Below, in pieces: positions 1-23,629 of a DNA stretch of 23,684 nucleotides. A program made the position numbers and the translations under genes. The stretch comes from a virus. The notes under the pieces were generated by a model. The model saw only the letters and a list, made by a program, of their open reading frames with translations, was not told the DNA's origin and did not search any database. Numbering within the stretch: the stretch's first letter is position 1; each line of letters starts with the position of its first letter. Location: UHGV virus genome UHGV-0175797. One strand, written 5' to 3'.

Positions 1-1777
1 CGAACGCCTCAATGCCCTGACTGAAAACCAGCGCCAGGTGGCTGATGCACGAATCGCGATCGTCAGCGAAGTTCTGAAAGTCGCGCAACAACCTGGTTTC
101 AGCTGTGCGAAGGCTATCCGGTTTATCGTTGACAACCTGGCACGTTCGCAACTGGACGAGCGCATTGTGGCAATGGTTGAGACGGCGAACGCCAAAAAGG
201 GAAACAGCCGTGCGTTGAGTGAAATCACGCTGAAACGCTGGATTGCGGCCTTTAACAAGGCACAGAACGCCGCTGAACGCCTGCTTTTACTGGCACCGGG
301 TAAACGCCAGGAAATAAAAGCCGAAGATATTAACTGGCTGCCCGAATTTCTGGCGCAGTATCGCCAGTCAAACGGCCGACCAATGACCGAGGCTTACGAG
401 GATTTTGTTGCTGAATGGCAGCACCGGCACGCTGATGAGCCTTATATGCTCGATATCATGCCCTCTTATGACACCATTCGCCGCGCAATGAAGAAACTGC
501 CGGAAGTGGTGAAACAAAAAGGCCGGGTAACTGGCAGTGAATACCGTCAGCTTGAGGGATTCACGCGCCGCGACTGGTCCAGAATGCCGGTGAATTATGT
601 CTGGATTGGTGACGGTCACGGCATGAAGCTGAAATGCGCGCACCCGGTTCACGGGCGGCCATTCGCACCGGAAGTGACCTTTGTTATCGACGGTGGCACG
701 CGCTTTGTGGTGGGCTGGAGCCTTGACCTGGCTGAAAATGTTTTCGCCGTAGCCGGTGCCATACAGCACGGTATTCGCCATCATGGCAAACCGTTTCTGT
801 ATTACTCGGATAATGGCTCCGGGGAAACCGCCGACGTCCTGGATAAGGAGATTGTGGGGATACTGCCACGACTGGGGATTAATCACCCGACAGGGATTGC
901 CGGTAATCCGCAGGGACGGGGCATTATCGAACGGCTTAACCGCACATTACCGATGCGCATAGCCCGTAAATACCGCACCTATTTCGGGAAAGGAGCAGAT
1001 CGCGAGACGTTACGTAAAACCAACCGCGATTTACGCTCGGCATTCAGTGCCCTGCAACAGGGCAAACGGCTGAACGCCCGGCAGCAGTCAGCGATGCGTG
1101 ATTTACCGTCCTGGTCTGAACTGATTGATGCCATTCGTGACGGTGTTGAGTGGTACAACAACCGGCCGCACGATGAATTACCCATGAAGCCGAACGGTAA
1201 ACATTACAGCCCGGCGGAGTTCAGAAAAAAACGCCTGGCGGAAGAGGACACGGAAATTGAATGGCTGTCCGATGTTGAACTGCGGGATATGTTCCGGCCG
1301 ATGGTGGAGCGCCCTGTAAGACGCTGTGAAATACGCTGGCTGAATAATATTTACTACGCGCCCGAGCTGCGTGACGAGCATGGCCGTAAGGTACTTATCA
1401 GCTATGACATTCATGATGCCGAACGAATTACCGTGCGCCGCCCGGATGGCAGCGTGATTTGCGAGGCGGTATGGGACGGCAATAAACGCGAAGCCTTCCC
1501 TGTCAGCGCGGAATACTACAAACAGCAGCAGCGCCTTAAAGGCATGCGTAAACGCGCAGAGGAAAAAATCCGTGATGCCGAGGATGAGGTTGTCAACGTG
1601 CTGGAGCACAAGCCGCAGGAGCCCTGGCTGGAAAACATATACCGCCCTGTGGGTAATACGGTGACCGTTCAGCAACCGGTCGCTGACGATGAACCTGATG
1701 AAGAATACGAGCGTAATTTCCAGCGGGGATTGCAACTGCTCGAAGCGAAATTAAAAGAAAGTGATCCGCTGGCCTGA
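1..1777 (+). CDS. Mu-type DDE transposase (MuA family), 5' end lies outside the window
   Basis: The reading frame is open from base 2 with no stop, so track ORF 38..1777 is only the first in-window start. Core motifs resemble the MuA catalytic core (WIGDGHGMKLKC, YYSDNGSGE) and the C-terminus has a Mu-like acidic tail (DDEPDEEYERNFQRGLQLLE). Immediately followed by a MuB-like gene. Confidence 0.85.
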   Translation, partial: ERLNALTENQRQVADARIAIVSEVLKVAQQPGFSCAKAIRFIVDNLARSQLDERIVAMVETANAKKGNSRALSEITLKRWIAAFNKAQNAAERLLLLAPGKRQEIKAEDINWLPEFLAQYRQSNGRPMTEAYEDFVAEWQHRHADEPYMLDIMPSYDTIRRAMKKLPEVVKQKGRVTGSEYRQLEGFTRRDWSRMPVNYVWIGDGHGMKLKCAHPVHGRPFAPEVTFVIDGGTRFVVGWSLDLAENVFAVAGAIQHGIRHHGKPFLYYSDNGSGETADVLDKEIVGILPRLGINHPTGIAGNPQGRGIIERLNRTLPMRIARKYRTYFGKGADRETLRKTNRDLRSAFSALQQGKRLNARQQSAMRDLPSWSELIDAIRDGVEWYNNRPHDELPMKPNGKHYSPAEFRKKRLAEEDTEIEWLSDVELRDMFRPMVERPVRRCEIRWLNNIYYAPELRDEHGRKVLISYDIHDAERITVRRPDGSVICEAVWDGNKREAFPVSAEYYKQQQRLKGMRKRAEEKIRDAEDEVVNVLEHKPQEPWLENIYRPVGNTVTVQQPVADDEPDEEYERNFQRGLQLLEAKLKESDPLA

Positions 1778-1859
1778 AATAAAAAAATAACCCGAGGGGT
1801 GACTCAGGTTATTTGAGGTTTCAGTCTCGGAGAATGCTGTCTCAAGCGAGGTGAATAAT

Positions 1860-2792
1860 ATGACCGATATTAACGATGTAATCAAGACCATTGATGAACT
1901 TATTGATGGCGGCGTACTGACGCAGTATGCCATCGCCAGAGAGGCGGGAATTTCCGACGGCACATTATCGGCTTTCCGTAAGGGAAAATATAAAGGCGAT
2001 AACGCTGCTGTGGCTGCTTCCCTGCGCTCCTGGTATGAGAACTGGAATAAACAAAGCGCACTGCCGGAACCGCCGCAGTTTGTGGAAACTCAGACAGTCC
2101 AGGAGCTGCGCGCACTGTTTCAGGCGGTTCGCCTGATGGGCTGTATTAACGTTATTGTGGGCGTACCGGGTGTGGGTAAAACGGCCACTGCCCGTAATTA
2201 CTGCCAGGAGCAACCAAACACCTGGATGATCACCCTGTCACCCGCGCACTCCAGCGTCACGGAGTGTCTGCTGGAGCTGGCCGATGCGCTGGGGATTGAT
2301 TACACCCGCGCGAACAAAGGGGCATTATCCCGCGCCATCCGCCGTCGCCTGACGGGAACGCGTGGACTGGTGATTGTGGATGAGGCGGATCATCTTGGTA
2401 TTGACGGTCTGGAGCAACTCCGGGCAATTCAGGACGCCACGGGGATCGGGATGGTGCTTATTGGTAACCCGCGCGGATTGTTTAAAGGTGGACGCCGCGC
2501 CTTTGATGATTTATCGCGCCTGTTCAGCCGTCTTGCCCGTACAAAACAACTTCGCAAGGCCAAAAAGGCGGATGTGCTGGCCATTGCCAGGGCATGGGGT
2601 ATCAGTGGTGAGGCCGAGCTGGCCGTCATGCAGGCTATCGCTGAAAAGCCGGGAGCATTACGTGTTCTGACACATACGCTTAACCAGGCGTGGCTCACCG
2701 CCAGCGGTGAAGGCGCGGCGCTGACAGAAAAACATATTAATGCGGCCTTTAAAGAGGTTTATACCAACCCTGAATTACTCTCACAGGTGTGA
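1860..2792 (+). CDS. MuB-type transposition ATPase (AAA+, target DNA capture)
   Basis: Walker A GVPGVGKT and Walker B LVIVDEADHL; N-terminal HTH-like segment; about 310 aa, directly downstream of the transposase as in Mu. ATG 1860 is preferred over GTG 1851 because GAGGTG lies 6-8 nt upstream. Confidence 0.88.
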   Translation: MTDINDVIKTIDELIDGGVLTQYAIAREAGISDGTLSAFRKGKYKGDNAAVAASLRSWYENWNKQSALPEPPQFVETQTVQELRALFQAVRLMGCINVIVGVPGVGKTATARNYCQEQPNTWMITLSPAHSSVTECLLELADALGIDYTRANKGALSRAIRRRLTGTRGLVIVDEADHLGIDGLEQLRAIQDATGIGMVLIGNPRGLFKGGRRAFDDLSRLFSRLARTKQLRKAKKADVLAIARAWGISGEAELAVMQAIAEKPGALRVLTHTLNQAWLTASGEGAALTEKHINAAFKEVYTNPELLSQV

Positions 2793-2794
2793 TT

Positions 2795-3016
2795 ATGGCG
2801 GTATTTAATATTCCTGATATTTACGGACGCTTTTACCTGGTTAATTTCGATAACGTGAAGGTGATTTCACTGGCCGAAAATAAAGCATGTGGCGATTTAC
2901 TTTTTGAATTTAATGACCGCACACGAATGGTGATATCTGCCGGACTTGATCGCGAAGGTGCGACAGAAGTTTACAGCGGAATATGCCGTTCTGTTGGTGC
3001 GAAACAAGTCAGCTAA
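2795..3016 (+). CDS. hypothetical small early protein (73 aa), occupies the kil-like position after B
   Basis: ORF starts 2 nt after the B stop, preceded by AGGTG; AT-richer than the backbone. No recognisable motif. Confidence 0.5.
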   Translation: MAVFNIPDIYGRFYLVNFDNVKVISLAENKACGDLLFEFNDRTRMVISAGLDREGATEVYSGICRSVGAKQVS

Positions 3017-3028
3017 ATGAGGTGTTAT

Positions 3029-3283
3029 ATGAATATGCAATCCTGCGGTAACAAAATGAATTTATTCGACTCCCTGAACAGCGCGCGCCGTCTGACCGAA
3101 CTTGCCGGTGCGGTACTGGAACGCAGTAAGCGCTATCCGCAACGTTTTGCACTGAAAACCACGCCGCCGGTAGGCAACGTGCAGGGAACCGGTGAAATTG
3201 AAATCACCATACAGACCAACGGCCTGCGCCGCCGTGTGAAGGCCACCCGCATCAGCGGCTGCACGGTTTACTGGGAGGTGTGA
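3029..3283 (+). CDS. hypothetical small early protein
   Basis: ORF with GAGGTG just upstream; the start is ambiguous between ATG 3017, 3029 and 3035. No recognisable motif. Confidence 0.45.
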   Translation: MNMQSCGNKMNLFDSLNSARRLTELAGAVLERSKRYPQRFALKTTPPVGNVQGTGEIEITIQTNGLRRRVKATRISGCTVYWEV

Positions 3284-3284
3284 G

Positions 3285-3566
3285 GTGAAAAAAAATCTCA
3301 TTGCATGGGCGTGGTCGAGTGGTCTTATTGAGTTTGGTTACGTCCTGCCGGAAGGTGCATTGCCGATAGTTGCCGGAAAGCCCGCCACGGTACGGCATGT
3401 GATTGATGTTGTGGCGCGTCATGGACGCGATGAACAGGAACAGCTACTGGTTCCTGGAATACCGGAAGCGGTGACGGAAGAAGAAGCCTTTAATGCCATG
3501 GTTCAGTTCTGCCGTGAGGTCAGACGCCGGGTCAGTTATCCAAACAGAACGAGGGCCAGAGGATGA
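3285..3566 (+). CDS. hypothetical early protein (93 aa, GTG start)
   Basis: GTG start preceded by GGGAGGTG; the stop overlaps the next start (ATGA), indicating translational coupling. Confidence 0.5.
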   Translation: MKKNLIAWAWSSGLIEFGYVLPEGALPIVAGKPATVRHVIDVVARHGRDEQEQLLVPGIPEAVTEEEAFNAMVQFCREVRRRVSYPNRTRARG

Positions 3567-3835
3567 GTAAAGTCGTGCGCATTATTTTCGAATACAAGGA
3601 GGACGTTATCCGTAAAAACGCTGATGGAACAGTGCACATGGGGGTAAGTCTGGATATACGTTCAACCGGAATAAAGCAGAAAAATGATAGCCCCGCCATG
3701 ATTTTTGGGGTGGTTATGCTGGCAGAAAGCAGAAACTTCGCAGAGCTTGTGGCAATGAAAGCCAGTGCATTCATGAAAGACAGGGGCATGGCTTCCGGGG
3801 TTATTAACGGTAATGAATTTAATCAGCAGGGGTAA
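3563..3835 (+). CDS. hypothetical early protein (90 aa), paralogue A of a tandem pair
   Basis: N-terminus MSKVVRIIFEY is shared with the next gene (MSKVRVIFEF); contains a hydrophobic stretch AMIFGVVMLA. Confidence 0.5.
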   Translation: MSKVVRIIFEYKEDVIRKNADGTVHMGVSLDIRSTGIKQKNDSPAMIFGVVMLAESRNFAELVAMKASAFMKDRGMASGVINGNEFNQQG

Positions 3836-3839
3836 TTCC

Positions 3840-4133
3840 ATGAGCAAAGTACGCGTTATTTTTGAATTTGAGCATGTTTCGCATGACGAAAAACCGGCAG
3901 GCAATGACAGTGTTGAAGTGCATGAAAAGATTGGTGTGGATGTAAAAACAGAACGTGATACGGATAACAGGCCGACGTCACTCTGTGACGTTTATGCAAG
4001 TATTCTCCAGTATCACAGTCCTGAAATTATTCAGTTTCTCTCAGCGGAATTTCAGGCATCTGTACAGGCTTTTGGGGCGGATGCCATCATTAAACGCCAC
4101 CGCGTGCATAAAGCATCAGGCACACTGCAATAA
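3840..4133 (+). CDS. hypothetical early protein (97 aa), paralogue B of a tandem pair
   Basis: ATG 3840 is preferred over 3813 (which would overlap the previous gene by 23 nt); AGGGG lies upstream. N-terminus is paralogous to 3563..3835. Confidence 0.5.
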   Translation: MSKVRVIFEFEHVSHDEKPAGNDSVEVHEKIGVDVKTERDTDNRPTSLCDVYASILQYHSPEIIQFLSAEFQASVQAFGADAIIKRHRVHKASGTLQ

Positions 4134-4144
4134 GGAAAAACAAA

Positions 4145-4675
4145 ATGGCTAAACGCGTTACAAAATTAAAGGCCGCAGCCGAGGCAGCACCGCAGACCCG
4201 TGAAGAGGTCAGCCGCGATATCCGACGCTTTGGGGATATGCAGCGTGAGGCACTACGCCTGGAAACGGCGATGAATGACGAAGTGGCAGAAATCACCGCC
4301 CGTTATACGCCGCAGATTGAAAACCTTAAAAAAGAAATCAAAGTGCTTTTTAAGGGGATTCATGACTGGTGTAAAACCAACCGCAATGAGCTGACGAACG
4401 GCGGCGAAACCAAAACAGCCAATCTGACCACCGGAACGGTGTCATGGCGGCTGGGAACGCCATCATGCAGCGTCAGCCGTGATGTGGAAGGCGTGATTGA
4501 AATGCTGCGCCGTATGGGCCTTGAGCGCTTCATCCGCACGAAAGAGGAAGTGAATAAGCAAGCTGTCCTGGCGGAGCCAGATGCGGTGAAGGGCATTGCC
4601 GGTATAAAGGTGAATAAAGGCGCTGAAAGTTTTTATGTCGAGCCTTTTGAACAGGACGCCGGACTGAATAAATAA
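4145..4675 (+). CDS. gam: Gam-like host-nuclease inhibitor (Mu Gam / Ku-like dsDNA-end-binding protein)
   Basis: 176 aa; matches Mu Gam as I remember it along most of its length (MAK...LKAAA, DI+R+GD+QREA RLET MND+AEIT, ELTNGG..KTANL.TG.VSWR, L+RFIRTK+E+NK A+L EP AV G+AGI V.G E F + PFEQ). Same relative position as in Mu. Confidence 0.85.
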   Translation: MAKRVTKLKAAAEAAPQTREEVSRDIRRFGDMQREALRLETAMNDEVAEITARYTPQIENLKKEIKVLFKGIHDWCKTNRNELTNGGETKTANLTTGTVSWRLGTPSCSVSRDVEGVIEMLRRMGLERFIRTKEEVNKQAVLAEPDAVKGIAGIKVNKGAESFYVEPFEQDAGLNK

Positions 4676-4772
4676 CACCGCATTAAATCTTTAAATATCA
4701 CATCGTGTTAATTATGGCGCTCGCGTCAGGGGACTGCCTGCGCCTGTAAACTGAAAATAAGGAACAGGAAAT

Positions 4773-5315
4773 ATGGCATATTTTTATTTCAAATTAGACA
4801 TAGTGTACACAAATAAATATTTAACCGAATATCAGCGGGATGTTTTACCGCTACGCAACAGTATTCTTCGGGCATTACTGAAAAATACAGGCGCTGCCGG
4901 ATTGCGCTTAAAGCCGTTCGCCATGGACGTAATCAGTGAGTTTTATTTTTCTGGTTCTCTGCCTGCGGGCTGGCGTAAGCGCGATGATGTGGCTTTTATC
5001 GGGGACGGACCGTGCTTTATTGCCAGACCTGATGAGTCATGCCCTGAAGGTCCGGCGATTGCCGCAATGATTGAAACCGCTGAACGTGAGTTAAGAAAGC
5101 GTCCTGATTTCCTTGTCTGGCTCTGTGAAAAGCTGGGGGTAATGAGAATCCCCTCCATGTTTAACACGGACTCCTGGTGGACCCCGTCGCTCTCCCGTGA
5201 TGCCCTGTGCGTGGTGTTTAAAGTAGGCGCTTATGGCAGGGAAATAAAAGGGGGTATTCCTGAAGAATGCCAGGAAATTAAACATTCTGAATATGTGGCG
5301 CTGACGGAGGAATAA
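4773..5315 (+). CDS. hypothetical protein (180 aa)
   Basis: ORF with AAGGAACAGG RBS; AT-rich 5' part; first of three translationally coupled genes. Confidence 0.55.
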   Translation: MAYFYFKLDIVYTNKYLTEYQRDVLPLRNSILRALLKNTGAAGLRLKPFAMDVISEFYFSGSLPAGWRKRDDVAFIGDGPCFIARPDESCPEGPAIAAMIETAERELRKRPDFLVWLCEKLGVMRIPSMFNTDSWWTPSLSRDALCVVFKVGAYGREIKGGIPEECQEIKHSEYVALTEE

Positions 5316-5318
5316 TTC

Positions 5319-5852
5319 ATGATTGATGCAAAAGTGCTTGAAGGGGTTAAAAGCTGGCTGCGTTTTTCTGGCCGTCTGACCAGTCGTTCTCTGGCAGAAA
5401 AAATGAATATGCCGCTATCCTCCATGGTTTATTTTCTGCGTGATGCGGTCGATGCCGGGGTGCTGACGGACCGTAACGGTTTTTATGATATTCCGCGTCC
5501 CCGCCCGGTGCAGGCGGTTCGTCGCAAATGCAGCCAGGAAGGTGCGGCTGATGATGTTCAGTGGTGCAGCTTCAGAAAATCCCTGCCGTGGATTGAGGGG
5601 CATGATATTCCGTCGATGGCGTGGGAATTTGCTCAGGGAGTACTGACCTGCGAAACCGTTTATGTGGTGGCTGAAGTTGATGAGCAGGCCATGAAAGAAG
5701 GCGTGCCCCAGTTTGTGATGGCGTATATCGACATTCGCCTGGGCGTCATTATCTGCGGCTTAAGCGGCTGGAACATCACCGGGCGCGTTCTGCGTTACCT
5801 GATTATTGACCGGACAGCGGCATCGGCAGGGATATCTGCGGAGGTGGCGTAA
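5319..5852 (+). CDS. hypothetical protein with N-terminal winged-HTH-like segment (177 aa)
   Basis: Starts 3 nt after the previous stop; the segment SLAEKMNMPLSSMVYFLRDAVDAGVL looks like a wHTH; its stop overlaps the next start (TAATG). Confidence 0.55.
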   Translation: MIDAKVLEGVKSWLRFSGRLTSRSLAEKMNMPLSSMVYFLRDAVDAGVLTDRNGFYDIPRPRPVQAVRRKCSQEGAADDVQWCSFRKSLPWIEGHDIPSMAWEFAQGVLTCETVYVVAEVDEQAMKEGVPQFVMAYIDIRLGVIICGLSGWNITGRVLRYLIIDRTAASAGISAEVA

Positions 5853-6367
5853 TGTTCTTTAAAACATCAAACCCTTCCGCGCTGGCTGCGTGGCAAAAAT
5901 ACCAGCAGGACTGCCAGAAAGTTAAGGATGAGGCAAAACGCCTTGAGGCCGTGCTGAATGTTGCGTGCCGGTCGGTATTTGTATCCGGTATCAGTGGATT
6001 TTGCTTTAAGGGACTGCGTTTTACGGAGGACAAATATCCTTTTCATCGCGACTTATGGCGAAAACCGACTGCGTCGAATGGCTGGAGCTGCACACCGCGC
6101 ACATCACGTATCCCTAAAACCCTGCGTGTTGCCTCTGATGAACTGAACAGTCTGTGGCGTGAATATTCGCCCGTCACGTATGCCAGAACCGATGCGCTGT
6201 TGTTCTGGCTGGGTATTGATTTCTCGGCAATCCTGTTTGGCCCTGTGAAGTGGTTCTGCGTTGACGATGTGATTTACCTTCAGTGCGGCGTAAAACCCGC
6301 AAAACAGAAAATGACCGAAATACTGTCTGATGAGTTTTATGCTGCTGAAAAGCGAGTCAGGGGGTGA
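5852..6367 (+). CDS. hypothetical protein (171 aa)
   Basis: Translationally coupled to both neighbours. No recognisable motif. Confidence 0.55.
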   Translation: MFFKTSNPSALAAWQKYQQDCQKVKDEAKRLEAVLNVACRSVFVSGISGFCFKGLRFTEDKYPFHRDLWRKPTASNGWSCTPRTSRIPKTLRVASDELNSLWREYSPVTYARTDALLFWLGIDFSAILFGPVKWFCVDDVIYLQCGVKPAKQKMTEILSDEFYAAEKRVRG

Positions 6368-6370
6368 TGC

Positions 6371-6922
6371 ATGATGAAATTACAACCCATGGGACTAAAA
6401 GGTCGCGCCCCCGCTCATGTCCGTCCGTGGACACCTGAAGAAGATGCGCTGCTGATTGCGCTTTATTCATCCACCCCGGTTAAGGATATTGCTGCCAGAA
6501 TAAAAAGAACTGTCTGGGCTGTATATAACCGGACTGGTGTATTGCGCAGTTCATACCCGGAGTTACTGAAATATAAACACCCAAGATTTACACCTGATGA
6601 AGATAAGTTTATTCGAAAAAATGCCAGAACAATGACCTGCCAGCAAATGGGAGAATATCTCGGACGTAATAAAGATTCTGTCAGATGTCGGGCAGGAATG
6701 ATTGGTGCTGGATTAACAAAGTGCGGAGAGTTACGCCCCGGCACGCGCATATCTGATGATGATGTACGTCTTATACGTGCGCTGCGTGATTCCGATTACC
6801 CACGCCGTCTGTCATTCCGGGAAATTGGCGAAAAGTTTGGAATATCTGAACATTCTGCTCACGCAGTTTATTACCGTCGCCGGACTGCCGAGGACGCTGT
6901 ATTACGGGAGTTAACGCCATGA
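6371..6922 (+). CDS. DNA-binding protein with two Myb/SANT-like repeats and a C-terminal HTH
   Basis: Internal duplication: WTPEEDALLIALYSS...IAARIKRTVWAVYNRTGVL and FTPDEDKFIRKNARTMTCQQMGEYLGRNKDSVRCRAGMIG (SANT/Myb-type signature W/F-T-x-E/D-E-D ... R-T/N ... R), followed by LSFREIGEKFGISEHSAHAVYYRR. Confidence 0.6.
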   Translation: MMKLQPMGLKGRAPAHVRPWTPEEDALLIALYSSTPVKDIAARIKRTVWAVYNRTGVLRSSYPELLKYKHPRFTPDEDKFIRKNARTMTCQQMGEYLGRNKDSVRCRAGMIGAGLTKCGELRPGTRISDDDVRLIRALRDSDYPRRLSFREIGEKFGISEHSAHAVYYRRRTAEDAVLRELTP

Positions 6923-7251
6923 TAACGACCTTATTTGTTGAATCAGATGAACCTCTTGTGTGTGCCGCCGGAATGCCGCTCTGTGGCGGAACGCTGACCG
7001 GCGTTTATTTCGGGGATTTGCGCGGTTATCCCTGGCATTCACTGGATGACGCATTTCCGCCTGATATGGAGGCTGTCGTGCTGATTGTTCAGTATGGTGA
7101 CCAACAGGAACTGCGCATCGGCCATATGGGGTATGAAGGCTTTTTTATTGATGAAGAAACCGGAGCCTGCCTTGAAGATGAGGACGGACAGGTGACGCAC
7201 TGGTGCCATCTTTCGGCCTTGCCGGAATTACAGGGGATACATAATGGATGA
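6919..7251 (+). CDS. DUF551-like acidic phage protein (110 aa)
   Basis: C-terminal motif VTHWCHLSALPEL resembles the THWMPLPEPP signature of DUF551; the start overlaps the previous stop (ATGA). Confidence 0.5.
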   Translation: MITTLFVESDEPLVCAAGMPLCGGTLTGVYFGDLRGYPWHSLDDAFPPDMEAVVLIVQYGDQQELRIGHMGYEGFFIDEETGACLEDEDGQVTHWCHLSALPELQGIHNG

Positions 7252-7387
7252 GCAAATTGTTGAATGTCCCACCTGTGGAAATGAGGACCCGGAGTATCTG
7301 AAAGAGTGCCCACATTGTGGTGAGATAAAATGTAACCACTGCGATATGGGCGACGACACTGCATGTATAAATTGTGAGGATGAATAA
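7244..7387 (+). CDS. small zinc-ribbon protein (47 aa, four CxxC motifs); absent from the ORF track because it is under 60 aa
   Basis: ATG 7244 overlaps the previous gene's 3' end. Translation MDEQIVECPTCGNEDPEYLKECPHCGEIKCNHCDMGDDTACINCEDE has CPTC, CPHC, CNHC and CINC. Stop TAA at 7385-7387 is followed 1 nt later by the next ATG. Confidence 0.45.
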   Translation: MDEQIVECPTCGNEDPEYLKECPHCGEIKCNHCDMGDDTACINCEDE

Positions 7388-7388
7388 T

Positions 7389-7676
7389 ATGGAAAAAGAA
7401 ATCAAATTTGCGCCTAAATCTATCGACGAAGAACTGGCTAAAATCGGCATGCTTGAACGTATGCGGGACATTATCGAATATGCGATAAAAGAAAATCTTG
7501 CAGCCAGAGAAGCCCTTTTGATAATGGAGCGGGAGATTAACCTGATTAAGGATGCTGTATCTCTGGATAATAAAATAGCCCGCGAGGAATACGTTCGCCG
7601 CAGGCTCGGTGTTGATGGTTCAGCAATTCTTACATCTGAACATTATGCAAAAATTTTTAATCTTTTTCAGCGGTAA
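7389..7676 (+). CDS. hypothetical helical protein (95 aa) in a low-GC segment
   Basis: ATG 7389 is coupled to the preceding stop; the region is AT-rich; the 3' end overlaps a convergent minus-strand ORF by 20 nt. Confidence 0.5.
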   Translation: MEKEIKFAPKSIDEELAKIGMLERMRDIIEYAIKENLAAREALLIMEREINLIKDAVSLDNKIAREEYVRRRLGVDGSAILTSEHYAKIFNLFQR

Positions 7677-7896
7677 TCCCCATACAGGCCCGGAGATTGT
7701 CGAAATGCCAGTCGGTATTAATATATGAGCCATCCTGGATATCTTCTGTATTTTCCGGGGTAGAGTTTTTTTGAGCGAGATTGATAATATGTATTGCCTC
7801 CTCACGGGAAATCAGCCCCTTATCGAACAGGGTTACCATAAGATTTCCAGCCATTGTGAATGCGGCAACATCAAGTGCATTTTTTATATCTGACAT
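7657..7896 (-). CDS. hypothetical small protein (79 aa), reverse-oriented low-GC gene inside the early operon
   Basis: Minus-strand ATG at 7896 with AAGGA about 9 nt upstream; AT-rich; convergent with and antisense to the early operon. Confidence 0.45.
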   Translation of the reverse strand: MSDIKNALDVAAFTMAGNLMVTLFDKGLISREEAIHIINLAQKNSTPENTEDIQDGSYINTDWHFDNLRACMGITAEKD

Positions 7897-7924
7897 AGAT
7901 TTTTCCTTTTATGTTAATTGACAT

Positions 7925-7953
7925 GGCGGTGCGGTAACACCGCCCATTTTTTA
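7925..7953 (+). terminator. rho-independent terminator-like hairpin (GGCGGTG-cggtaa-CACCGCC followed by CATTTTTTAT)
   Basis: 7-bp GC-rich perfect stem with a 6-nt loop and a T-tract on the + strand, located between the low-GC cassette and the gemA-like gene. Confidence 0.55.
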
Positions 7954-7966
7954 TGGAGCCACGATA

Positions 7967-8479
7967 ATGAATCGCGCTTCCCTGATTACCTTAATACATG
8001 TCGCAAAACGCGATCTACAGCTTGACCATGATACCTATACATCCGCGCTGCTGGCAGCCACCGGCAAATCCAGTTGCCGTGATATGTCACCCGGTGAGTT
8101 ATCCCGCGTGCTGGATGTTTTCAAAAAACGCGGTTTTAAAGTGCGTCAGAAGCCGGTTAACCGGGCCTTAAAACCGGGTACGGTGACCGCCAAAATTCGC
8201 GCCATCTGGAAAGTGATGCACCGGCAGGGATTTATCTCTGATGGCGGGGAAACGGCCCTTAACCGCTGGGTGAAATCGCAGACGGCCGCGCAGAACGACG
8301 GCGAAGGTGTGGCTAACTGGCAGTGGCTGGAGCAACAACCCGCGCTGGCCTCTGATGTGCTGGAGCGTCTCAAACGCTGGCACCGCCGCAAAATGCTGGC
8401 AGCCCTGGATATGTCGGAACGTGCAGTGATGAGTTATGAGCGTGTTTGCAGGCTGTATGAAAAATCATTCCCCCGTTAA
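7967..8479 (+). CDS. gemA: GemA-like regulatory protein (Mu gp16 / DUF1018 family)
   Basis: The N-terminal pattern LITLIHVAKRDLQLDHDTYTSALLAATGKSS...ELSRVLDVF matches the GemA family signature; position immediately before the Mor/C-family gene as in Mu. Confidence 0.65.
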   Translation: MNRASLITLIHVAKRDLQLDHDTYTSALLAATGKSSCRDMSPGELSRVLDVFKKRGFKVRQKPVNRALKPGTVTAKIRAIWKVMHRQGFISDGGETALNRWVKSQTAAQNDGEGVANWQWLEQQPALASDVLERLKRWHRRKMLAALDMSERAVMSYERVCRLYEKSFPR

Positions 8480-8483
8480 CCCC

Positions 8484-8549: not shown

Positions 8550-8972
8550 ATGGCTGAAACACAGATGAGCATGTTTGGTGACAGCGAACAGCTGCACGCG
8601 CTGATTGACCGTCTGGATGATATTCCTGATGATGAGCTGAAAAAGAACTGGCCCGGCACGCTGCGGGACCTGGTTGATGTGATCAGTGCTGAACTGCACC
8701 GTCAGGGGATTGAACCTGCTCAGGCGGGAATGCTTGCCCGTAAGGTTGCAGCCGCACAGGCCGGGTACATGGGCGGGCGTGGTTATTATCTCCCGGTCGG
8801 TGAATCCCTTTTCACCGAACTGCGCAATAATGAAATTTTTTCCCGCTGGAGCCAGGGCGAAAAAATTGAAACCCTGCGCCGCCACTACCAGATGTCAGAG
8901 ACGCAGATTTACTCCGTTATCCGCAACCAGCGTCGCCTGCATCAGGAGCGCACGCAGCCCCGGCTTTTCTGA
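8550..8972 (+). CDS. Mor/C-family transcriptional activator (middle/late gene activator), 140 aa
   Basis: Aligns by eye with Mu Mor across the family-conserved segments (FGD, L..L+D.L..EL.R.G+.PA.A, GG..YY+P.G..L, C-terminal HTH ...Y.+S...+Y.VIR..RRL). Length and position (after a terminator, directly before the lysis gene) are more like Mu C. GGAGG RBS. Confidence 0.75.
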   Translation: MAETQMSMFGDSEQLHALIDRLDDIPDDELKKNWPGTLRDLVDVISAELHRQGIEPAQAGMLARKVAAAQAGYMGGRGYYLPVGESLFTELRNNEIFSRWSQGEKIETLRRHYQMSETQIYSVIRNQRRLHQERTQPRLF

Positions 8973-21644: not shown

Positions 21645-22195
21645 CCCTGACCCCGCATCAGCGCGCCCTGTTGCAGTTACTGCCTGACGGGCTGGCATGG
21701 GACAAGCGTCCGTCATCCGTACTGGCATCATTATGTCTGGGCCTCAGTCATTCGACAGCGCGTGTATCCTGGACGGGTAAACAGCTGCTTGCCGAGCGTT
21801 TCCCTGACACGTCGCGCCTGCTGCTGGAAGACTGGGAGCGTTATCTCGGGCTTCCCGAGTGTGATATGGCCGGAGCCACCCTCACGGAGCGACAGCGTTA
21901 TGCCGGAAATAAATACCGGATGAAGCCCTCGCTGAACCGTGAATTTTATATCCGGTTTGCGGCGGAGTTTGGTTATCAGATTGACATTCAGCCCTCACCG
22001 GATTCGCAGTGGGTCAGTATTGTCACGATTAACAGTGAAACCGGCTACCGGAATATGAATGTGCTGGATGATATTCTCACGCCGCTGCGTATTTATGAAG
22101 GCGGTGCGCTGGAATGTATTCTGAACCGTTATAAGCCTGCATGGCAGACGTTTATTTACGTTTATGCAAACAGCCATGAAGAGGAGACTATTTAA
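21635..22195 (+). CDS. tail protein (Mu gp48-like, DUF2313/YmfQ family)
   Basis: 186 aa against about 187 aa in Mu; motifs [11 protein letters not shown] and [12 protein letters not shown] are typical of the family. Confidence 0.7.
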
Positions 22196-23076
22196 TGTTT
22201 CATGTTGATAATAATTCCGGCGTGGCGAATATGCCTGCGCTGGCACCGGCGCAGAGTAATACCACCACCTGGTTTACCGAAGGTGACGGACAAAAAGGTA
22301 TCAGCTGGATTGGTCAGGACTGGCTGAATATTCTCCAGGCCGAACTGCTGAATATTCTGGCTGAAGCCAGTATTCAGCCGGATAAGGCGCAGTTAAACCA
22401 GCTTACGCTGTCCATTAAAGCCATTATCGCTGCGAATGCCTTTTCCCGGAAAAATAACCTGAAAGAAATTGCTGATGCCGGTGCGGAGGCCCAGCGTCTG
22501 GCCCGTGGTTATCTTGGTCTGGGGACGCTTGCCACAAAAAACAGTCTTGGTCCCGCTGACGTTAATGCCCTGGCGAAGGATCAGAATCTCGCCGACCTGG
22601 AGAATAAGGGAACCGCCCGTAATAATCTGGATGTTTACAGCAAAAGCGAAGGTGATAACCGTTACCTGCGCAGGGAGCAGAACGGCGCAGACATTCCGGA
22701 TAAAGGGGCTTTTATCGATAACGTCGGTTTACGGGAAACGGTAAACAGGGCGGCGAATGCCCTGCCATCGGACGGCACCGCCGTTGCCGCGAACAGGCTG
22801 GCAAATGCCCACACAATTAATGGTGTTCCCTTTGACGGGACGCAGGATATCACTATCTCATCAGGAACAGTAACCGCCATAAGACTGGGGTCGGTGACCG
22901 CACATATGCCCGGAACATGGGAAAGCTGGGATCTGAATCTGGGGGGCGGCAATGTTCTTACCGGAATTAAAGTACAGGATGTCGGTAAGAATACGGCAGA
23001 TAACGTCGGCGGCGTGTATTACCGGCCGTTGCAGTATCTGTTAAATGGAGCATGGGTGACGGCTGCAAGTATATAA
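22195..23076 (+). CDS. tail fibre protein (constant N-terminal part plus currently fused variable C-terminal part)
   Basis: 293 aa; N-terminus typical of P2/Mu-type fibres; contains a gix-like crossover site at 22712..22737; AT-richer 3' part. Confidence 0.75.
22712..22737. other. gix/hix-like 26-bp recombination (inversion crossover) site inside the tail fibre gene
   Basis: TTATCGATAACG-TC-GGTTTACGGGAA. Against the Mu gixL site as I remember it (TTATCCAAAACC-TC-GGTTTACAGGAA in this orientation), about 22 of 26 positions match, including the central TC. Confidence 0.6.
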
Positions 23077-23084
23077 TGATATTC

Positions 23085-23110
23085 AGAAGGCCTTCCGGCC
23101 TTCTTTATTA
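23085..23110. terminator. bidirectional terminator-like hairpin between convergent fibre and chaperone genes (GAAGGCC-ttcc-GGCCTTC, A/T runs on both sides)
   Basis: Perfect 7-bp GC-rich stem with a 4-nt loop, followed by TTTATTA on the + strand and preceded by T-rich sequence on the minus strand. Confidence 0.6.
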
Positions 23111-23629
23111 CTGTGGCTGCTCAGGCCATTTAATGGCGTTAAATTCAGCTTCTGTTTTAATGGCGGGTAGTTCCATTTTCTTCACCTGACTGATGTATGC
23201 CATCCATTGGGTAAGTGCTGCTCTGTCTTCATCGCTGATGGTGCCCAGTTGTAGCTCCGTTCTCCAGTCATTAATTTTTTCATATGCCTGATTAAGATAT
23301 GACTGGCGCATTGCTTCCAGTTTTCTTGCGTAGTTAACCGGAATACGGGAGATTATGCCATTATCAAACTTCCAGTTTCCTGAAATATCCGTGCCTTCAG
23401 GGAGTTCATCGACCTCAACCACAGAAAACCCCGCAGGATACAGCGCCGAGGCGTCCTGTGATATTGAGCAGATAACGCCGCTGTCAGGTGTTATGCAAAG
23501 TTTATATTTTTTGGTGAATAATGGCAGGGATTCGTAGAAATCCTTACCATCTTCACTCTGGAAATACTGAACATTATTACCATATGGCATATTTTCAGGA
23601 TAATAACGGGTTATATTTTTTAGTTCCAT
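23108..23629 (-). CDS. tail fibre assembly protein (Tfa / Mu U-family chaperone), opposite strand
   Basis: 173 aa; typical Tfa features (N-terminal MELKNITRYYPEN, central Tyr/Asp-rich region, C-terminal AEFNAIKWPEQP); AGGAGG RBS on the minus strand; AT-rich. Confidence 0.8.
   Translation of the reverse strand: MELKNITRYYPENMPYGNNVQYFQSEDGKDFYESLPLFTKKYKLCITPDSGVICSISQDASALYPAGFSVVEVDELPEGTDISGNWKFDNGIISRIPVNYARKLEAMRQSYLNQAYEKINDWRTELQLGTISDEDRAALTQWMAYISQVKKMELPAIKTEAEFNAIKWPEQPQ

Follow-up and report, generated by a model that had tools for sequence, protein, structure and literature searches.

UHGV virus genome UHGV-0175797, a stretch of 23,684 nucleotides that was analysed over its full length (the window), is a Mu-like prophage of E. 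coli. Its early operon contains a gene of 552 nt (6371..6922) with a product of 183 amino acids (aa), which raises the question of what kind of protein this is, how it is built and what it does for the phage. An initial annotation made from the sequence had described a Myb/SANT-like protein with two repeats and a separate C-terminal helix-turn-helix (HTH) segment. Our analysis indicates that the protein belongs to the T5 D5 / Mu gp9 family, consists of three tandem Myb-like HTH units and is probably an accessory early DNA-binding regulator. Its Myb/SANT-like character was already public annotation, since the product is identical to RefSeq WP_000977058.1, which is named "SANT/Myb-like DNA-binding domain-containing protein". 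The gene is 100% identical at the DNA level to annotated coding sequences in several complete E. coli genomes and is present in 200 of the 5,426 complete E. coli genomes, in up to four places per genome. The feature is already annotated, belongs to a known and abundant kind of phage protein and is in that sense ordinary.

The number of units follows from profile comparison. An alignment of 30 full-length orthologs with 30-74% identity (alignment A2) was cut into three segments, and hhalign matched the segment of repeat 1 (residues 16-64) to that of repeat 2 (69-118) at 98.9% (E 2e-17, 43 columns). Repeat 2 matched repeat 3 (122-172) at 93% (E 3e-7), and repeat 1 matched repeat 3 at 88% (E 3e-6). 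The hidden Markov model (HMM) of repeat 1 finds repeat 2 at an independent E-value of 4e-8, and the HMM of repeat 2 finds repeat 1 at 2e-5. As single sequences the first two repeats are only weakly similar (z = 3.1, a score reached by 23 of 2000 shuffles) and nothing but xTPxED aligns. The internal duplication put forward in the initial annotation is therefore not an alignment illusion, although it is faint in the single sequence, and the reading frame and its WTPEEDALL and FTPDEDKFI motifs are exactly as described there. The HTH that had been set apart at the C-terminus is present as well, but it turns out to be the same unit in a third, diverged copy, so that the protein is an array of three units and not two repeats with an additional domain. 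When all six frames of the window were searched with the HMMs of repeats 1 and 2, no further member of the family turned up.

The structure prediction that had been suggested as a check agrees with this architecture. The AlphaFold2 (AF2) model gives three units of three helices each and a disordered N-terminal arm, with a mean predicted local distance difference test score (pLDDT) of 79.5 that rises to ~85-90 inside the units. Its predicted template modelling score (pTM) is 0.41, which suggests that the units are flexibly linked. Repeat 1 is the most Myb-like unit (WTPEEDALL...IA...RT) and its W20 is invariant among the orthologs, while repeat 2 fits the tandem-repeat consensus of long multi-repeat relatives. 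In repeat 3, which aligns to Mu gp9 and T5 D5, D129 is invariant, and L138 and R139 (of an LRD motif), Y167 and R170 are nearly so (at least 90% of orthologs). The N-terminal arm also matches phrog_38779. The net charge of the protein is +13 and is distributed over all three units.

The relationship to Myb was also found by profile search, which assigns the Myb-type fold and so bears out the signature read from the sequence. Against the sequences of the PDB, the family profile matched c-Myb with an E-value of 6.8e-8 in one alignment (query 19-106 against c-Myb 60-149), in which both repeats are in register with R2R3 at the tandem spacing of ~50 residues. Further matches were B-Myb (1.7e-7), v-Myb, Cbp1 (8e-6), Trichomonas MYB21/MYB3 (~1e-4) and the Mos1 HTH (7e-4). 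The Pfam family Myb_DNA-binding (PF00249) was found at E <= 0.01 in 18 of the 30 orthologs, at best with 1e-7. As in Myb/SANT domains, the HTH is formed by helices 2 and 3 of a three-helix bundle. A phmmer search of the single protein against the PDB gave nothing significant, nor did Foldseek with the whole model against the PDB, where Cbp1 (PDB 2lvs) was the top match. The protein does belong to the superfamily of Myb/SANT-like tri-helical HTHs, though in a divergent prokaryotic-viral form and not as a canonical Myb. It differs from c-Myb and B-Myb (PF00249) in its prokaryotic-viral origin, in the absence of transactivation domains and in a third unit that is far more diverged.

RefSeq labels diverged alleles of the gene "AsnC family protein" or "DNA-binding protein". 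The first of these names is a misnomer: the HTH_AsnC-type model scores 19.1 bits against a cut-off of 27 and covers residues 130-164 only. An assignment to AsnC/Lrp is wrong because the AF2 model is all-helical, has no beta strands and lacks a RAM domain.

The initial annotation had called such folds uncommon in bacteria, a view that does not hold given the numerous phage relatives, a RefSeq name already in use and the outcome of an exhaustive profile search of 1.84 billion cluster representatives, which returned 9,889 at E <= 1e-3 and 1,841 at E <= 1e-10. Besides orthologs of ~180 aa, the relatives include many long proteins with four to nine tandem copies of the Myb-like unit. The metagenomic protein P0023 combines a ResIII/Helicase_C helicase with nine repeats (Pfam Myb_DNA-binding, 2e-41), and some multi-repeat relatives also match the GcrA and Cbp1 models. 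Those that were checked come from bacterial isolates, metagenome-assembled genomes (MAGs) and metagenomes, for example a protein of a Propionibacteriaceae MAG that is named "SANT/Myb-like". Foldseek against viral models retrieved many phage proteins, among them several from jumbo phage Goslar (one a "Myb-like domain-containing protein"), an "AsnC family protein" of phage C130_2 and a T5-like "D5 protein". Iyer et al. 2021 (PMC7824862) had already described that transcription factors with Myb-type HTHs are expanded in phages. In T5, the GenBank note on the 'replication origin binding' helicase T5.108 (L067 19546-22332) lists a SANT/Myb InterPro domain, and fusions of a helicase to a Myb array may recur (T5.108, P0023).

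The closest characterised relative is D5 of phage T5 (T5.118, YP_006946.1, 255 aa). The 183-aa protein matches PHROG 323 ('transcriptional regulator, D5-like') with an E-value of 2e-52 (residues 2-182 against profile positions 80-256 of 319), and D5 itself matches this PHROG at 1e-71. In a direct comparison, hhalign matched the family profile to D5 at 97.3% (E 2e-11) over 164 columns that span all three units (query 17-183 against D5 71-252). Both are early-expressed phage proteins of the same PHROG 323 family. The T5 GenBank note describes D5 as a DNA-binding protein on which DNA replication and late transcription depend and which takes part in shut-off; PMC12630848, citing McCorquodale 1979, likewise gives it as needed for replication, late transcription and early-gene shut-off. 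D5 is essential in a lytic phage, whereas the gene studied here is accessory in temperate phages.

A second relative is gp9 of phage Mu (E8, Mup09, NP_050613.1, 99 aa; L068 5482-5781), which carries the same PHROG-derived label and aligns to residues 65-168 of the family, i.e. units 2-3 (hhalign 98.3%, E 1e-14). Like the gene studied here, it belongs to the semi-essential early region of a transposable phage, but it has neither the N-terminal arm nor unit 1 nor the C-terminal tail, and it is found just upstream of gam, whereas the 6371..6922 gene is downstream of gp11/gp12-like genes. No discussion of the relationship between Mu gp9, the 183-aa family and T5 D5 was found in the searchable literature, nor was a paper found there that ties D5 to Myb, or prophage proteins so named to Myb-like domains. 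The archaeal CRISPR repeat-binding protein Cbp1 of Sulfolobus (PDB 2lvs) is similar in being small, basic and made up solely of three imperfect HTH repeats (Foldseek, 103 columns, probability 0.99), but it is chromosomal and has another biological role, and the NCBIfam Cbp1 model does not match the 183-aa protein.

From these relationships we infer DNA binding, a binding mode and a regulatory role. The protein would be made from the Mu-like early transcript, along with the transposase, MuB and Gam. A monomer would bind duplex DNA with the third (recognition) helices of successive units in the major groove, a binding mode modelled on c-Myb R2R3, the GcrA DNA-binding domain (PMC5887438) and Cbp1. 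By analogy with T5 D5, it might then modulate transcription, and possibly replication, in lytic growth. The positive charge and the homology to D5 make the DNA-binding or regulatory role that had been suggested at the outset likely. The N-terminal arm, the K117-x-G119 linker and the C-terminal tail could contact the DNA backbone, the minor groove or a partner such as RNA polymerase.

Several points weigh against a D5-like DNA-binding regulator with Myb-like units. Firstly, the protein taken alone stays under the gathering score of every Pfam HTH or Myb family (PF00249 Myb_DNA-binding, 20.7 against 24.4 bits; PF13921, 17.3 against 22.9 bits), and in NCBIfam no model matches it. Secondly, of the three tryptophans typical of Myb the first alone is retained (W20; F72 in unit 2), and small, aliphatic or polar residues stand at the positions of the second and third c-Myb tryptophans, so that the set of three aromatic core residues is incomplete. 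SANT-type domains can bind protein rather than DNA. Thirdly, the identity to T5 D5 is only ~24% and D5 has ~70 extra residues at its N-terminus, and its function may therefore not transfer to the 183-aa protein. A functional study of Mu gp9 was not found in the literature. Lastly, no candidate binding site was identified, although no search aimed at a target motif was made.

An alternative is that the protein works as an RNA polymerase cofactor, in which the arm or the tail would contact RNA polymerase, so that the protein redirects or blocks host sigma-70 transcription in a GcrA-like or appropriator-like manner and does not act through an operator like a classical regulator. GcrA is a sigma-70 cofactor (PMC5887438, PMC4647560), multi-repeat relatives match Pfam GcrA, and Pfam Sigma70_r4 was found at E <= 0.01 in 20 of the 30 orthologs. 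The terminal peptides are strongly conserved though they lie outside the HTH units. Such Sigma70_r4 matches are, however, generic among tri-helical HTHs. GcrA of Caulobacter (PDB 5yiu) has one unit and a CCCH zinc domain that interacts with sigma-70, with the motif C-X14-C-X9-C-X2-H (PMC5887438). This domain is absent from the 183-aa protein, which has only three cysteines (C90, C105 and C118) and no such pattern; Pfam GcrA (PF07750) gives no match and it is only the DNA-binding fold that is shared. A cofactor of this kind is therefore unlikely.

The distribution of the gene among phages bears on another suggestion of the initial annotation, namely a protein that works with the transposition machinery or binds to the host chromosome, and on the related idea that Mu transposition is helped by its binding to the chromosome or to the ends of the prophage. 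A scan of IMG/VR with an alignment narrower than A2 (alignment A1) gave 64 loci, 63 of which were classified by tblastn with marker proteins; no marker protein matched at the remaining one (L066; 24% identity, E 9e-5). Two thirds of the classified loci (42 of 63) are Mu-like and have the constant order gp11-like gene, o5852, 6371..6922-type gene, (o6919), gp16 and Mor. The other 21 are P2-like, and there the gene lies between C/Cox and the gene of the replication endonuclease gpA, an arrangement also seen in Citrobacter phage Shae_phiSM. At all 42 Mu-like and 21 P2-like viral loci the gene is on the operon strand within the early operon. The family thus occurs in Mu-like phages but extends beyond them, and the gene moves between Mu-like and P2-like early operons.

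The place of the gene in the operon of MuA/MuB, ~3.6 kb downstream of the two, would suit a role in transposition, and transposase-type HTHs (Tc3, Mos1, IS21 IstA) occur among the fold and profile matches. A function tied to transposition is nevertheless unlikely because the same gene is found, as full-length homologues, in P2-like early operons, and a remote three-unit homologue is T5 D5; neither P2-like phages nor T5 transpose. In addition, the gene is accessory in Mu-like phages, and Mu itself has only the two-unit gp9, elsewhere in the early region. Together these points make a transposition partner highly improbable, and this part of the initial annotation is not upheld.

Within E. coli Mu-like prophages the gene occurs in two allele classes, with protein identities of at least 96% in one case and ~72% in the other (loci compared: L022, L023, L026, L028, L030, L036 and L040). 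Compared with the second class, the flanking genes show a nucleotide identity of 86-100% and the single 100-nt segment over most of codons 1-43 one of 89-93%; the identity drops to 64-83% over ~6500-6900 and is back to 91-96% at the stop codon. The divergence begins near codon 44 and finishes exactly at the stop codon, so that the divergent patch (codons 44-183) holds all three recognition helices. Synonymous divergence (dS) is 0.76-0.96 in the patch against 0.10-0.26 in the flanks (4-8x), while the ratio of nonsynonymous to synonymous divergence (dN/dS) between the classes is 0.22-0.29 throughout. Judging from these substitution patterns, purifying selection acts on both allele forms, which shows a genuine gene under constraint, and the patch is by the same comparison an old divergent allele that was swapped by recombination. 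Positive selection or an arms race was considered as the source of the patch and rejected, since dS is up 4- to 8-fold and dN/dS is unchanged.

The maintenance of two deeply diverged alleles could also point to a protein-protein adaptor or counter-defence factor, in which the SANT-like units would attach to a protein of the host or the phage and might, for instance, disable a host factor at the start of infection. Genes for host takeover and anti-defence are frequent in the early accessory regions of phages. The dN/dS values carry no arms-race signature, though, and all units are strongly positively charged. DNA binding is described for T5 D5, the closest characterised relative, and PADLOC gave no match for the protein or for five neighbouring genes. 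This makes an adaptor very unlikely, and a DNA-binding regulator remains the reading that we prefer.

The initial annotation had further taken the AT-rich core of the gene as a sign of acquisition. The dip is real, with a GC content of 40.8% at 6500-6700 against 47.5% for the gene, 49.0% for the early region (2800-8480) and 54.7% for the whole window. It lies, however, within the range of the early region, where 7% of the 200-nt windows are as low or lower and neighbouring accessory genes have 39.9-43.8% GC. The AT-rich core is mild and by itself no evidence of acquisition; the recombined patch is the better sign of exchange. Directly after the next gene (6919..7251), the segment 7201-7700 (open reading frames (ORFs) 7244..7387 and 7374..7676) encodes a Cys-rich zinc-ribbon-like protein of 47 aa and a protein of 100 aa at 40-44% GC. 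Some prophages that are otherwise almost identical have unrelated sequence in its place, with an identity of 34-53% in L023 and L040 against 87-100% in L022 and L026, and it looks like a variable accessory cassette.

The gene lies in the early operon between the Gam and gp11-like genes on one side and gp16 and Mor on the other (Table 1), which agrees with the Mu-like early location given in the initial annotation; lysis, head and tail genes come after Mor. The Shine-Dalgarno-like sequence, the upstream stop codon and the ATGA overlap indicate that the gene is packed in a translationally coupled array, with coupling on both sides. Consensus scans between MuB and ~7925 gave no promoters or terminators above shuffled expectation. 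The early-gene neighbours give no functional hint, since apart from 5319..5852 (Mu Gp11_C) they match PHROGs of unknown function.

Table 1. Coordinates of the gene, of the parts of its product and of other genes of the Mu-like prophage. Residue numbers refer to the 183-aa protein.
Feature	Coordinates	Strand	Remarks
Complete gene, 183 codons and stop	6371..6922	+	ATG start (ORF list)
Conserved basic N-terminal arm, residues 1-18, consensus M.L.PMG.PG.CPAHVR	6371..6424	+	Predicted disordered, pLDDT 44-62
Repeat 1, residues 19-60; helices 22-31, 37-44, 48-59	6425..6550	+	AF2 model, alignments
Repeat 2, residues 71-112; helices 75-83, 90-97, 101-110; FTPDEDKFIRKN...MT..Q....LGR...SV	6581..6706	+	
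Linker between repeats 2 and 3, with invariant K117-x-G119 motif (KCGE/D)	6707..6742	+	Alignment A2
Repeat 3, residues 125-170; helices 129-140, 149-156, 160-169	6743..6880	+	Diverged HTH unit
Conserved C-terminal helix and tail, R.TA.DA..RELLP	6881..6919	+	Alignment A2; helix 173-181, lower pLDDT
Mosaic patch, codons 44-183, distinguishing the two allele classes	6500..6922	+	Identity, dS
Shine-Dalgarno-like AGGGGG	6359..6364	+	6 nt 5' of the ATG; read from the sequence
Stop codon of the preceding ORF	6365-6367	+	Between AGGGGG and the ATG of the 6371..6922 gene
ATGA overlap, stop of the 6371..6922 gene and start of the next early gene (6919..7251)	6919..6922	+	
MuA-like transposase	38..1777		
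MuB-like ATPase	1851..2792		
Gam	4145..4675		
gp11-like	5319..5852		Carries Mu Gp11_C
gp16/GemA-like	7967..8479		
Mor	8550..8972		

Some other features of the window were noted in passing. Two separate early genes match 'host nuclease inhibitor' PHROGs, namely 3285..3566 (93 aa, phrog_1518) and the Gam-like 4145..4675 (phrog_491 and phrog_18351). An ORF of 79 aa on the minus strand (7657..7896; phrog_32893, of unknown function) lies within the early operon and is followed by a GC-rich hairpin with a T-run at 7925-7944; ORF and hairpin resemble the reverse-strand gp15 directly before gemA in phage Mu. Near the end of the window, a short tail-fibre gene (22195..23076, plus strand, 293 aa) and a convergent tail-fibre assembly gene (23108..23629, minus strand) are separated by a palindrome (23073-23108). 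The pair 22195..23629 would fit one orientation of an invertible host-range cassette like the G segment of Mu, the remainder of which lies past the point where the window stops.

The finding matters little beyond tidying of annotation. What is added here is that there are three units and not two plus an unrelated HTH, that the name 'AsnC family' is wrong, that the family shares homology with T5 D5 and Mu gp9/E8, two classical phage proteins about which little is understood, that the gene moves between Mu-like and P2-like early operons, and that recombination has exchanged two old alleles of it. Work on D5 or on the Mu semi-essential early region could draw on these points, but they open no new question, and the only mildly interesting leads are that T5 D5 and Mu gp9 can be read structurally as Myb-like arrays and that the two alleles recombine. 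One speculative extension, which we consider clearly unlikely, is that T5 D5, Mu gp9 and the 183-aa family are a widespread class of phage 'Myb-array' proteins that would coat or mark replicating phage DNA and tie replication to the transition from early to later transcription, with the two alleles serving as DNA-specificity cassettes that distinguish co-resident Mu-like prophages. If this were true, a small, non-essential and tractable prophage gene could serve to study what T5 D5 does at the molecular level, which is still unexplained.
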